From: Escherichia coli
GTDB lineage: Bacteria > Pseudomonadota > Gammaproteobacteria > Enterobacterales > Enterobacteriaceae
Length of the DNA stretch: 64,000 nt
Direction: 5' to 3' (one strand)
NCBI RefSeq assembly: GCF_003334335.1
Contig: NZ_QOWQ01000007.1
Shown: piece after piece, positions 25,779-53,245 of the stretch
How positions within the stretch are numbered: position 1 is the stretch's first letter
Layout: each line of letters opens with the position of its first letter
The notes under the pieces: generated by a model
The model's database searches: none
Seen by the model: the letters and a program-made list of their open reading frames with translations, nothing else
What the model was told of the DNA's origin: nothing
Translations under genes and position numbers: made by a program

Positions 25779-26900
25779 ATGTCAAAAGTCGCTCTCATCA
25801 CCGGTGTAACCGGACAAGACGGTTCTTACCTGGCAGAGTTTCTGCTGGAAAAAGGTTACGAGGTGCATGGTATTAAGCGTCGTGCATCGTCATTCAACAC
25901 CGAGCGCGTGGATCACATTTATCAGGATCCGCACACCTGCAACCCGAAATTCCATCTGCATTATGGCGACCTGAGTGATACCTCCAACCTGACACGCATT
26001 TTGCGTGAAGTGCAGCCGGATGAAGTTTACAACCTGGGCGCAATGAGCCACGTTGCGGTTTCTTTTGAGTCACCGGAATATACCGCAGACGTCGATGCGA
26101 TGGGTACGCTGCGCCTGCTCGAGGCGATCCGCTTCCTCGGTCTGGAAAAGAAAACCCGTTTCTATCAGGCTTCCACCTCTGAACTGTATGGTCTGGTGCA
26201 GGAAATTCCGCAGAAAGAAACCACGCCGTTCTACCCACGCTCTCCGTATGCTGTCGCCAAACTGTACGCCTACTGGATCACCGTTAACTACCGCGAATCC
26301 TACGGCATGTACGCCTGTAACGGTATTCTCTTCAACCATGAATCCCCGCGCCGCGGCGAAACCTTCGTTACCCGCAAAATCACCCGCGCAATCGCCAATA
26401 TCGCCCAGGGGCTGGAGTCGTGCCTGTACCTCGGCAATATGGATTCCCTGCGTGACTGGGGCCACGCCAAAGACTACGTAAAAATGCAGTGGATGATGCT
26501 GCAACAGGAACAGCCGGAAGATTTCGTTATCGCGACCGGCGTTCAGTACTCCGTGCGTCAGTTCGTGGAAATGGCAGCGGCACAGCTGGGCATCAAACTG
26601 CGCTTTGAAGGCACGGGTGTTGAAGAGAAGGGCATTGTGGTTTCCGTCACCGGGCATGACGCGCCGGGCGTTAAACCGGGTGATGTGATTATCGCCGTTG
26701 ATCCGCGTTACTTCCGTCCGGCTGAAGTTGAAACGCTGCTCGGCGACCCGACCAAAGCGCACGAAAAACTGGGCTGGAAACCGGAAATCACCCTCAGAGA
26801 GATGGTGTCTGAAATGGTGGCTAATGACCTCGAAGCGGCGAAAAAACACTCTCTGCTGAAATCTCACGGCTACGACGTGGCGATCGCGCTGGAGTCATAA
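25779..26900 (+). CDS. gmd: GDP-mannose 4,6-dehydratase (colanic acid copy)
   Basis: 373 aa; '[17 protein letters not shown]' Rossmann motif; high GC. Confidence 0.95.
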
Positions 26901-26902
26901 GC

Positions 26903-27868
26903 ATGAGTAAACAACGCATTTTTATCGCTGGCCATCGTGGGATGGTCGGTTCTGCCATCAGGCGGCAGCTCGAACAGCGCGGTGATGTGGAACTGGTATT
27001 ACGCACCCGCGACGAGCTGAACCTGCTGGACAGCCGCGCGGTGCATGATTTCTTTGCCAGCGAACGCATTGACCAGGTCTATCTGGCGGCGGCGAAAGTG
27101 GGCGGCATTGTTGCCAACAACACCTATCCGGCGGATTTCATCTACCAGAACATGATGATTGAGAGCAACATCATTCACGCCGCGCATCAGAACGACGTGA
27201 ACAAACTGCTGTTTCTTGGATCGTCCTGTATCTACCCGAAACTGGCAAAACAGCCGATGGCAGAAAGCGAGTTATTGCAGGGCACGCTGGAGCCGACCAA
27301 CGAGCCTTACGCCATTGCCAAAATCGCCGGGATCAAACTGTGCGAATCATACAACCGCCAGTACGGACGCGATTACCGCTCAGTCATGCCGACCAACCTG
27401 TATGGCCCGCATGACAACTTCCACCCGAGTAATTCGCATGTGATCCCTGCATTGCTGCGTCGCTTCCACGAGGCGACGGCACAGAATGCACCGGACGTGG
27501 TGGTATGGGGCAGCGGTACACCGATGCGTGAATTCCTGCACGTCGATGATATGGCGGCGGCGAGCATTCATGTCATGGAGCTGGCGCACGAAGTCTGGCT
27601 GGAGAACACCCAGCCGATGCTGTCGCACATTAACGTCGGCACGGGCGTTGACTGCACTATCCGCGAGCTGGCGCAAACCATCGCCAAAGTGGTGGGTTAC
27701 AAAGGTCGGGTGGTTTTTGATGCCAGCAAACCGGATGGTACGCCGCGCAAACTGCTTGATGTGACGCGCCTGCATCAGCTTGGCTGGTATCACGAAATCT
27801 CACTGGAAGCGGGGCTTGCCAGCACTTACCAGTGGTTCCTTGAGAATCAAGACCGCTTTCGGGGGTAA
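26903..27868 (+). CDS. fcl: GDP-L-fucose synthase (colanic acid copy)
   Basis: 321 aa; '[12 protein letters not shown]' NADP-binding motif. Confidence 0.95.
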
Positions 27869-28350
27869 TGATGTTTTTACGTCAGGAAGACTTTGCCACG
27901 GTAGTGCGCTCCACCCCGCTTGTCTCTCTCGACTTTATTGTCGAGAACAGTCGCGGCGAGTTTCTGCTTGGCAAAAGAACCAACCGCCCGGCGCAGGGTT
28001 ACTGGTTTGTGCCGGGAGGGCGCGTGCAGAAAGACGAAACGCTGGAAGCCGCATTTGAGCGGCTGACGATGGCGGAACTGGGGCTGCGTCTGCCGATAAC
28101 AGCAGGCCAGTTTTACGGTGTCTGGCAGCACTTTTATGACGATAACTTCTCCGGCACGGATTTCACCACTCACTATGTGGTGCTCGGTTTTCGCTTCAGA
28201 GTAGCGGAAGAAGAACTGTTACTGCCGGATGAGCAGCATGACGATTACCGCTGGCTGACGCCGGACGCACTGCTCGCCAGTGACAATGTTCACGCTAACA
28301 GCCGCGCCTATTTTCTCGCTGAGAAGCGTGCCGGAGTACCCGGATTATGA
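27868..28350 (+). CDS. gmm: GDP-mannose mannosyl hydrolase (Nudix), colanic acid copy
   Basis: 160 aa; Nudix box '[23 protein letters not shown]'. Confidence 0.9.
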
Positions 28351-51069: not shown

Positions 51070-51815
51070 TGCGAATTTCTATTATCACAGCTACTTATAA
51101 TAGTGAAAAAACTCTCCTTGATACATTACTTTCTCTAGAAAAGCAAACGCATCCAGATATTGAATATATAGTTGTAGATGGAGCATCGAAAGATAATACA
51201 ATTAAGCTGATTAAGAGTAATTGTACAAAAGTTTCAAAAATCATTTGCGAACCCGATAAGGGCATTTATGATGCTCTGAATAAAGGTATTCAAGCAGCTT
51301 CGGGTGATGTTATTGGTTTTTTACATTCTGATGACTTATTTGCTTATGATGATGCTATTGCAGATATAGCAAAAACATTTGAAAGTACAGGATGTGATGC
51401 TATTTATGGCGATTTGGAGTACGTTGCCCAAAATGATACGACTAAACGTATTAGATTATGGAAAAGTGGTTCATTTAGTCGTTTCAAGATGAAAGTGGGT
51501 TGGATGCCGCCACACCCATCATTTTATATGAAACGCGAATGTTATAGTCAGTTTGGTAGTTTTTCTTTAGATTATCGAATATCTGCTGATTATGACTCAT
51601 TATTACGATATATTTTAAAACAACGTATTTCGATAGCATATTTACCAAAAGTCTTAGTGAAGATGCGTGTTGGTGGAATTAGCAATCGTTCAGTATCTTC
51701 AATGGCCAAGAAGTCAATGGAAGACATTCGTATTATGAAACAGAATGGTATTATCTGGCCACTTGCTTTAGCGTATAAAAATATATCCAAACTTCCTCAA
51801 TTTATTAAAAAGTAA
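51069..51815 (+). CDS. WcaE-like GT2 glycosyltransferase (candidate fucosyltransferase)
   Basis: 248 aa, same length as WcaE and alignable by eye ('SIITATYNSEKTL...YIVVDGASKDNT...GIYDALNKGI' vs WcaE '[13 protein letters not shown]...[12 protein letters not shown]...[10 protein letters not shown]'). Confidence 0.7.
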   Translation: MRISIITATYNSEKTLLDTLLSLEKQTHPDIEYIVVDGASKDNTIKLIKSNCTKVSKIICEPDKGIYDALNKGIQAASGDVIGFLHSDDLFAYDDAIADIAKTFESTGCDAIYGDLEYVAQNDTTKRIRLWKSGSFSRFKMKVGWMPPHPSFYMKRECYSQFGSFSLDYRISADYDSLLRYILKQRISIAYLPKVLVKMRVGGISNRSVSSMAKKSMEDIRIMKQNGIIWPLALAYKNISKLPQFIKK

Positions 51816-51820
51816 TCATC

Positions 51821-53245
51821 ATGTTAAATGTTAAAAAAATCATTAACGATAGTAATATTGCGTTCGGTACTAGTGGTGCTCGCGGTTTAGTGATCGATTT
51901 TTCCCATGATGTTTGTGCTGCGTTCACTCATGCGTTTCTTTCTGTTATTGATGACAAATACAATTTTAGTAAAGTTGCCTTAGCCATTGATAACCGCCCA
52001 AGTAGTTACGAAATTGCTCAGGCATGCGCGTATGCTATAAAACAACATGGATTCGAGGTTGAATATCATGGTGTAATTCCGACTCCTGCATTAGCTCATT
52101 ATTCGATGCAGAAAAACATTCCCTGCATAATGGTCACAGGGAGTCATATCCCTTTTGATCGTAATGGCTTAAAATTCTACAGACCTGATGGTGAAATCAC
52201 TAAAGAGGATGAGCTCGCAATTATAAATAGTGAGTATACATTTTCGCCTGTAGGTGAATTACCTCATCTTGAAACAAGCACTCAAGGTGCAGACTACTAC
52301 CTCGAACGTTATGTTTCTCTTTTTAATCCCGAGATTTTAAAGGGGAAAAGAATAGGGGTATATGAACATTCTAGTGCGGGACGCGATTTATATGCTCCTC
52401 TTTTTAATCAAATGGGTGCAGAGGTCATTTCCCTCGGTAGGAGTGATGAGTTCGTTCCGATTGATACGGAAGCAGTAAGCGATGAAGATCGTATACTTGC
52501 AAGAGAGTGGTCTAAAAAATATAATCTTGATGCTATTTTCTCAACAGATGGCGATGGTGATCGTCCTTTAGTTGCCGATGAAAATGGTGAATGGTTAAGA
52601 GGCGATATTCTGGGACTACTTACTGCTATTGAACTTAATATCAAGGCGTTGGCTATTCCAGTGAGTTGTAATACAGCAATTGAAGAGTCTAATAAATTTG
52701 CAAGTATACAACGAACGAAAATAGGTTCTCCTTATGTAATTGCAGCATTTGCAGATCTTGCTAAGCAATTTGATTCAGTCGCTGGTTTTGAAGCTAATGG
52801 TGGTTTTCTCCTTGCCTCCGATTTACAAATTAATGGCAAGGAATTAAAATCGTTACCTACACGAGATGCTGTGTTACCAGCATTAATGCTCTTAATAGCT
52901 TCTCGCAATAGTACTATTTCTCAACTGATTAATAATCTTCCTCAGCGATTCACTTGGTCAGATAGAGTTAAAAACCTCCCTTCAGATTCAAGTCAACAAA
53001 TTATAAAAAATGCCATATCGTCACCCAATAATTTCTTTAATAGTTTAGGTTATGAATCATTATCCTGTTCCGCTATTGATGAAACGGATGGTGCAAGATT
53101 TACTTTAAATAATGGTGATATTATACATCTCCGTCCTTCCGGTAATGCTCCAGAACTCCGTTGTTATGCTGAGGCCAGTGATGAAAATCAGGCTAAGCAA
53201 TATGTTACGAATGTGCTGGGAAATATTACCTCTTTGATTTCTTGA
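51821..53245 (+). CDS. manB: Phosphomannomutase-like alpha-D-phosphohexomutase (O-antigen copy, divergent from CpsG)
   Basis: 474 aa; 'TGSHIPFDRNG' active-site loop, 'DGDGDR' metal site, 'FEANGG', 'RPSGNAPELR' phosphate-binding loop. Confidence 0.8.
   Translation: MLNVKKIINDSNIAFGTSGARGLVIDFSHDVCAAFTHAFLSVIDDKYNFSKVALAIDNRPSSYEIAQACAYAIKQHGFEVEYHGVIPTPALAHYSMQKNIPCIMVTGSHIPFDRNGLKFYRPDGEITKEDELAIINSEYTFSPVGELPHLETSTQGADYYLERYVSLFNPEILKGKRIGVYEHSSAGRDLYAPLFNQMGAEVISLGRSDEFVPIDTEAVSDEDRILAREWSKKYNLDAIFSTDGDGDRPLVADENGEWLRGDILGLLTAIELNIKALAIPVSCNTAIEESNKFASIQRTKIGSPYVIAAFADLAKQFDSVAGFEANGGFLLASDLQINGKELKSLPTRDAVLPALMLLIASRNSTISQLINNLPQRFTWSDRVKNLPSDSSQQIIKNAISSPNNFFNSLGYESLSCSAIDETDGARFTLNNGDIIHLRPSGNAPELRCYAEASDENQAKQYVTNVLGNITSLIS

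Follow-up and report, generated by a model that had tools for sequence, protein, structure and literature searches.

In a 64,000-nucleotide stretch of Escherichia coli DNA (contig NZ_QOWQ01000007.1 of assembly GCF_003334335.1; hereafter the window), two sets of GDP-L-fucose genes lie in adjacent clusters, one in the colanic acid operon and the other in the O-antigen cluster, and their gmd genes share an exact run of 44 bp. We interpret this patch as a gene-conversion footprint, 37-44 bp in length, left when E. coli colanic-type gmd sequence was copied into the O-antigen gmd, and assign this interpretation a probability of roughly 70%; as a site of future rearrangement the patch does not appear useful. 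The two-module arrangement is known. What is new is this particular patch, most likely a conversion scar and a minor instance of exchange between colanic and O-antigen paralogs.

The shared run in gmd

The 44-mer, ATGTACGCCTGTAACGGTATTCTCTTCAACCATGAATCCCCGCG, occurs exactly twice in the window, at 26307-26350 in the colanic gmd (25779..26900) and at 47631-47674 in the O-antigen gmd (47100..48224), as an earlier note on this DNA had reported. Both copies lie on the + strand, 21,324 bp apart, and none would be expected in 100 shuffles. Each begins on a codon boundary, at gene offset 528 in the colanic copy and 531 in the O-antigen copy, and encodes 14 residues plus (R) in the conserved catalytic core of Gmd, within about 100 codons over which the protein is identical between the copies. 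The first copy is the presumed donor type and the second the presumed recipient. In the latter, mismatches at 47630 and 47675 bound the tract and the informative sites run from 47636 to 47672, which sets its length at 37-44 bp.

Because the amino acids are fully conserved at the patch, there are no non-synonymous differences to be found there, and one might suppose that synonymous codons in a conserved region had simply coincided. Three null models reject this supposition. Runs of at least 44 bp arose in 0 of 20,000 permutations of codon columns (P < 5e-5), in 0 of 20,000 simulations that redrew the codons of the O-antigen copy according to O-module usage while keeping the protein unchanged (P < 5e-5), and in 5 of 20,000 when codon pairs were permuted among columns of the same conserved amino acid (P = 2.5e-4). 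Given the protein and the codon usage of the O-antigen module, the probability of the patch codons is 5e-8. The surroundings tell the same story: the O-antigen gmd matches the colanic copy at all 44 positions of the patch but differs from it at 28 of 120 flanking ones, a divergence of 23% (Fisher p = 6e-5). The identity is far beyond chance, and coincidence is an explanation that these models effectively refute, leaving it a negligible probability.

The codons themselves point to the colanic gene. Outside the patch nearly every second third position differs, the colanic copy having C where the O-antigen copy has T or A; inside it, none does. The codons of the second copy (TAC GCC AAC CTC TTC AAC TCC CCG) are GC-rich and of colanic type, embedded in an AT-rich gene. 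Of the 13 third positions that are informative within the patch, eight carry G or C. Gene-wide, the GC content at third positions (GC3) is 0.31 in the O-antigen copy and 0.64 in the colanic copy, so in composition the patch matches the colanic gene rather than the gene in which it lies.

The patch also stands alone between the two modules. Codon-aware alignment of the five gene pairs gave protein and nucleotide identities of 79.6% and 69.5% for gmd, 72.9% and 64.9% for fcl, 48.0% and 50.7% for gmm, 59.1% and 58.5% for manC, and 23.7% and 39.3% for the O-antigen ManB paired with its colanic counterpart, CpsG. By blastn the modules align in gmd-fcl and in a few short pieces of manC and gmm, and no DNA homology was detected between manB and cpsG. 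The two modules are old paralogs: gmd is only 69.5% identical in nucleotide sequence, and manB cannot be aligned. Apart from the 44-bp run, the five pairs contain no exact identity longer than 15 bp, a result with which an independent repeat finder agrees; identity patches sought in fcl, gmm, manC, and manB did not exceed 14-15 bp. The tract is therefore identical to its paralog over a length greater than divergence and protein constraint together predict (44 versus 15 bp).

Distribution of the patch and its likely origin

A scan for the exact 44-mer in one genome per species, covering 100,044 bacterial and archaeal species, found it in E. coli only. Within E. coli, the exact sequence is present in 2,530 of 5,426 complete genomes and a single-mismatch version in 1,024 more. 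Twenty-eight complete genomes are at least 99% identical over the O-type flanks together with the patch, and the two patch-bearing AT-rich contexts that were fetched, the window type and that of strain Z22-6, belong to different O-antigen clusters. Occurrence in an AT-rich context in 28 complete genomes and two cluster types rules out an assembly artefact. Seventy-one genomes hold the 44-mer twice and at first suggested additional cases of the patch. In the two of them that were fetched (O128 and JB2), the O-antigen gmd is colanic-type throughout, 92-94% identical, and so differs in kind.

Comparison with other AT-rich alleles indicates where the tract is missing. For each fetched E. coli allele, we compared the 44 nt of the patch and 120 nt of flanks with the colanic copy and tallied the mismatches. 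Like the window allele, the Z22-6 type has 0/44 in the patch and 28/120 in the flanks; the closest other class, the L002 type, has 2/44 and 26/120. The related O84, O11, O157, and O111 alleles lack the tract, with 7/44, 6/44, 10/44, and 8/44 mismatches in the patch and 31/120, 30/120, 33/120, and 28/120 in the flanks, respectively. Significant depletion of mismatches in the patch is confined to the window, Z22-6, and L002 types, and O157 and O111 show none. A further hit (H189) proved to be a second O157 genome and added nothing as an allele.

These alleles bear directly on the possibility that constraint at the nucleotide level—selection acting on codons, or on some RNA or DNA element within the catalytic-core region—keeps the copies identical without any recombination. 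The patch does encode the most conserved stretch of the protein, and TAC, AAC, TTC, GGT, GAA, and CCG are preferred codons in E. coli; the O84 and O11 alleles, moreover, have fewer mismatches in the patch than in the flanks. Against this, CTC, TGT, CAT, and ATT are identical between the copies although they are non-preferred synonymous codons, and codons in the flanks, where the amino acids are just as conserved, differ at nearly half of their third positions. In O157 and O111 the patch has diverged as much as its surroundings, and the exact 44-mer is found in no other species representative; together these results rule out universal nucleotide conservation. Even in the colanic gmd of E. coli the patch is polymorphic, with the 1,024 single-mismatch genomes and more without a match. 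We consider constraint improbable as the source of the identity.

Conversion accounts for the pattern more readily. We infer the mechanism, its direction, and its occurrence inside E. coli as follows: a very short, non-reciprocal event would have copied E. coli colanic-type gmd sequence into an O-antigen gmd. The site would be the stretch of the gene that is locally most similar and under catalytic constraint, and the recipient an ancestor of the allele that at least two O-antigen cluster types now have in common. This direction is favored by the GC-rich composition of the patch, by the restriction of the exact 44-mer to E. coli, and by a leucine codon that is TTG in O84 and O11 and CTC in the window, a change entailing two substitutions. 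In its features the tract resembles ectopic, or non-allelic, gene conversion between diverged paralogs, being short and identical to the donor, flanked by divergent sequence, donor-like in composition, and missing from sister alleles. Where it departs from the usual case is in its extreme shortness (37-44 bp), for which a standard RecA-initiated event is not obviously sufficient. Transfer from the colanic to the O-antigen copy has a precedent in the same module family: in the O11 cluster of strain SWHEFF_69 (fetched locus L004, 11780-13150), the last gene of the otherwise AT-rich fucose module is a manB with 97% identity to cpsG over 1,333 bp, which looks like a whole-gene replacement by the colanic paralog.

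Several points weigh against this interpretation. The polarity of the change rests on five AT-rich allele classes, all from E. coli. O84 and O11 share TAT, TTG, and CCA where the window has TAC, CTC, and CCG, but when the colanic copy serves as outgroup, parallel C-to-T changes in these two alleles explain several patch sites just as parsimoniously. The mismatches of O84 and O11 are also somewhat fewer in the patch (14-16%) than in the flanks (25%), and some local synonymous constraint may act there. In addition, the inferred pre-conversion allele shared exact runs of at most about 14-17 bp with the colanic copy, which is below the reviewed processing-segment length and leaves the start of the event unexplained.

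Nor need the donor have been the resident colanic gene. It could equally have been a colanic-type gmd belonging to another O-antigen cluster, with the same conversion taking place during cluster replacement or recombination at the same position. The O-antigen gmd of O128 is 94% identical to the colanic gmd and identical across the patch, that of the JB2 type is one base off, and AT-rich gmd alleles are visibly mosaic, which argues for frequent exchange between O-antigen gmd alleles. A tract of 44 bp cannot tell such donors apart; the resident colanic copy, however, is always at hand inside the cell, while an O128-type cluster has to be brought in from outside. On balance we hold an O128-like donor to be unlikely, though it deserves more weight than the other alternatives to a resident one.

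The mosaicism can be mapped in the fetched alleles. Between the window O-antigen gmd and that of Z22-6 (L008), 58 of the 60 differences in gmd-fcl lie before 47499, most of them before 47345, and two further differences fall at 48812 and 49031, the modules being otherwise almost identical. Such a distribution implies a junction between O-antigen cluster types inside gmd, the first ~250-400 nt of which are mosaic. The L002-type allele differs from the window and Z22-6 alleles by 19 substitutions confined to 47648-48125, beginning inside the patch, 11 of which are common to O84; this segment is a second mosaic boundary among the AT-rich gmd alleles (L002 and L009 compared). A break of another sort occurs in the O111:H8 strain 7-27 20A (L013, 13662-14300), in which the colanic gmd breaks off after about nt 558, within the patch region, at the apparent end of an insertion sequence (IS) element. 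Annotation places a remnant of the IS3 family about 70 bp downstream, with copies of IS30 and IS2 beyond it, and what should remain of the colanic operon as far as galF is missing. This truncation appears to be IS-mediated and its coincidence with the patch fortuitous.

The patch as a substrate for exchange

The earlier note had valued the patch for what it might do, holding it long enough to support homologous recombination that could delete or invert the roughly 21 kb between the copies or generate mosaic genes. A crossover in the patch would give an in-frame chimeric gmd and a deletion of 21.3 kb spanning fcl through wcaM, galF, and the O-antigen wzx, wzy, and glycosyltransferase genes. Inversion can be dismissed: the copies are direct repeats, whose reciprocal exchange yields deletion or duplication. 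As to length, 44 bp exceeds the E. coli processing segment of at most about 30 bp given in one review (PMC8918686), and the minimal efficient segment has been put at 23-90 bp depending on the pathway (PMC3758752). Divergent flanks, however, provoke mismatch-repair abortion of exchange (PMC8918686, PMC3758752). Taken with this range of segment lengths, the flanks leave 44 bp only at the threshold, and as a future exchange substrate the patch is marginal.

Deletion by exchange between paralogs of these clusters is well documented for another gene pair. According to Jensen and Reeves (2004), as cited in PMC7685785, exchange of the colanic and O-antigen manB/cpsG paralogs produced a deletion in the O14 type strain. 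In the long-term evolution experiment, where manB and cpsG are 96% identical, 10 of the 12 populations acquired 23-kb deletions of the region between them, and for seven rearrangements manB-cpsG recombination was named as the direct cause (PMC4173774); the chimeric phosphomannomutase that results is the subject of a 2026 preprint (bioRxiv 10.64898/2026.06.14.732165). Like these cases, the window has GDP-mannose/fucose paralogs arranged as direct repeats in two adjacent clusters, and the exchange they illustrate removes roughly 20-23 kb and leaves an in-frame chimeric gene. The window pair has their direct orientation and a run of identity above the processing segment; it lacks their ~96% identity over more than 1 kb around the crossover. 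Where the known cases recombine through about 96% identity over about 1.4 kb, manB and cpsG in the window have no DNA homology and the shared sequence is 44 bp in gmd.

The same kind of deletion can be recovered from complete genomes. As a positive control, cpsB joined to gnd was found as a single place in four of the 5,426 E. coli genomes. One of these, TUM14697 (L011, 6172-10741), reads wcaI-cpsB-cpsG-gndA with everything between deleted; the cpsB-cpsG-gnd arrangement in it and in the three other complete genomes is an O14-type deletion, the rest of the colanic operon, galF, and the O-antigen cluster being gone. For the gmd pair we queried wcaE-F joined to O-type gmm-manC, a query covered as a single place only after a crossover anywhere in gmd-fcl. 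Both halves lie about 21 kb apart in 226 genomes, and the junction itself is found in 0 of 5,426, which is weak evidence given an at-risk set of only about 28.

Could the patch nonetheless be an active substrate, at which RecA-mediated exchange deletes 21 kb or makes a mosaic gmd often enough to matter? Its length exceeds the reviewed segment (PMC8918686), the copies are direct and codon-aligned so that the product would be in frame, and deletion of the same kind is on record for manB/cpsG (PMC7685785, PMC4173774), including the four genomes above. On the other side stand the absence of a wcaF-(gmd/fcl)-O-type gmm junction, weak as that evidence is with about 28 genomes at risk, the lack of any other shared run above 15 bp, the expected abortion of strand exchange by mismatch repair at 23% divergent flanks (PMC8918686, PMC3758752), the far longer homology used in known cases (PMC4173774), and the loss of both colanic acid and O antigen from the product, besides the inability of direct repeats to invert. 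An active role thus strikes us as improbable. The earlier note had itself held that recombination would be unlikely to matter if alignment left the 44-bp patch as the only identity above about 20 bp and population data held no structural variants. Both are what we find, the second weakly. Paralog exchange as a route to deletion stands for manB/cpsG, and no product at gmd or fcl has surfaced in the 5,426 genomes. The patch makes more sense as what an earlier exchange left behind than as a starting point for a later one.

A related arrangement shows what a more favorable substrate looks like. O128, like the window, has a second gmd-fcl-gmm-manC-manB set beside the colanic cluster in the same orientation, and in the O128:H27 strain 90-9281 (L006, 19473-26266; L017, 733-6149) the modules form direct repeats about 18 kb apart. 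Unlike the window copies, those of O128 share 2.5 kb at 96.3% identity, with exact runs of up to 255 bp, plus 1.3 kb at 96.4% in manB. This gmd-fcl-gmm and manB homology is a far better substrate for deletion than the window's, and the window module pair is among the least recombination-prone arrangements of its kind.

The locus and what the patch means

The window has a close relative in E. coli strain LR-29-1, isolated from human faeces in Ecuador: positions 41000-53300 match it with 100% coverage and 100.0% identity, and the 41 kb from 23000 to 64000 are 99.985% identical. Gene names at the locus accordingly follow the RefSeq annotation of the LR-29-1 locus, together with open reading frames (ORFs) and NCBIfam scans. 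The layout runs from a colanic acid operon, wcaC to wcaM in canonical order by annotation, through galF and the O-antigen cluster to gnd, ugd, wzzB, and the his operon. It is the standard E. coli arrangement upstream of gnd and his, in which a resident GC-rich colanic operon has its own GDP-L-fucose genes, while the AT-rich O-antigen cluster downstream of galF is laterally acquired and built around a known gmd-fcl-gmm-manC-glycosyltransferase-manB fucose module. The contrast in base composition that the earlier note had remarked upon is borne out, with GC3 of 0.62-0.69 in the colanic genes and 0.22-0.34 in the O-antigen genes.

All features of the two modules lie on the + strand. In the colanic module, gmd is supported by annotation and by TIGR01472 (587.0 bits versus a cut-off of 415), and is followed by fcl, encoding GDP-L-fucose synthase (26903..27868; annotated as WP_000043606.1 and found as an ORF), gmm/wcaH, encoding GDP-mannose mannosyl hydrolase (27871..28350), wcaI, encoding the colanic acid fucosyltransferase (28347..29570), and cpsB, the colanic acid manC (29573..31009), these last three by annotation. 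The module closes with cpsG, the colanic acid manB (31202..32572), by annotation and NF011943 (1054 bits versus 801).

The O-antigen cluster comprises, in order, wzx, a hypothetical membrane protein, three glycosyltransferases, gmd, fcl, gmm, manC, a GT2-family glycosyltransferase, and manB. Its gmd reaches 587.3 bits with TIGR01472 (cut-off 415), fcl (48228..49193) 548.5 bits with NF047922 (cut-off 500), gmm (49196..49657) 205 bits with NF011963 (cut-off 146), and manC (49663..51069) 737.6 bits with TIGR01479 (cut-off 373). Both Gmd proteins, CpsG, and the O-type Fcl, Gmm, and ManC accordingly score above their equivalog cut-offs, and each module has a mannose-1-phosphate guanylyltransferase, the O-type ManC by model and cpsB by annotation. 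The GT2 gene (51069..51815) has GT2-family matches only, all below cut-off. The last gene, manB (51821..53245), encodes a member of the phosphohexomutase superfamily, named from its position and called phosphomannomutase by the RefSeq pipeline; its product reaches no NCBIfam cut-off, the best match being a phosphoglucosamine mutase model at 172 bits versus 439. It belongs to a different phosphohexomutase lineage from CpsG, and its context suggests phosphomannomutase activity.

Two gene sets thus occupy the places the earlier note had given them, as ORFs, annotation, and NCBIfam agree. That both pathways are complete holds for Gmd and ManC in each module and for the O-type Fcl, and is less firm for the O-type ManB, whose name comes from context. 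Their order is the same only loosely, a glycosyltransferase gene being inserted at a different place in each: wcaI between gmm and manC in the colanic module, and the GT2 gene between manC and manB in the O-antigen one.

This latter arrangement has counterparts in the literature. A gmd-fcl-gmm-manC-wfeY-manB module is described in O36, O41, O156, O159, O168, and the novel serogroup of strain SD2019180, where wfeY is the alpha-1,3-fucosyltransferase of the O36/O41/O156/O159/O168 module (PMC10606467). The window shares its gene order, a 248-aa glycosyltransferase between manC and manB, and an AT-rich composition (about 36-43% GC). The window GT2 is likened to wfeY by position and by the 248-aa size in that description, not by sequence, and the use of manB in this literature is a further basis for the window name (PMC10606467). 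Related copies of the window module occur in O84, O11, and untyped clusters. Unlike the wfeY-module serogroups, the window wzx and putative wzy (41347-44023) match no serogroup-specific NCBIfam model, and the whole O-antigen cluster is found in 3 of the 5,426 complete genomes; it is probably an untyped or rare O-genotype.

Other observations concern manB and the repeats of the region. In Z22-6 (L008, 12281-13706) the manB of the patch-bearing module is annotated as frameshifted. In the divergent E. coli PO06021, of O99 (L015, 23358-26371), the colanic operon passes from cpsB to wcaJ without a cpsG between them, and the sole cpsG-like gene of the strain lies in the O99 O-antigen cluster beside manC. 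Besides the 44-mer, the only exact direct repeat of at least 20 bp seen to join both clusters is the JUMPstart/ops element, found at 16547-16587 upstream of wza and at 41086-41126 (+ strand) upstream of the O-antigen operon, before wzx. These form a 41-nt direct repeat of 88% identity that holds a 23-nt exact run containing GGCGGTAGCGTG. Palindromic repeats resembling repetitive extragenic palindromes and bacterial interspersed mosaic elements (REP/BIME) lie between colanic genes at 20566-20640 (after wzc), 31006-31112 (after cpsB), and 35593-35797 (after wzxC), in both direct and inverted copies of 63-93% identity.

In practice the patch is of little importance, being apparently a micro-conversion scar carried by a single family of AT-rich gmd alleles from O-antigen clusters. 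It could confuse read mapping or in silico serotyping at gmd. For instance, 3,418 genomes matched the O-type gmd by megablast only through their colanic gmd; because no other run exceeds 15 bp, these alignments between ~70%-identical paralogs were presumably seeded at the patch.

More far-reaching is the idea that an ectopic conversion of less than 50 bp can begin between paralogs with no run of identity longer than about 17 bp. We regard it as doubtful. If true, it would mean that the sugar-pathway paralogs of colanic acid and O-antigen synthesis swap micro-tracts without identity of processing-segment length, by routes such as template switching or the patchy mismatch repair of a long homeologous heteroduplex, and that micro-tracts of this kind could seed later, larger exchanges.

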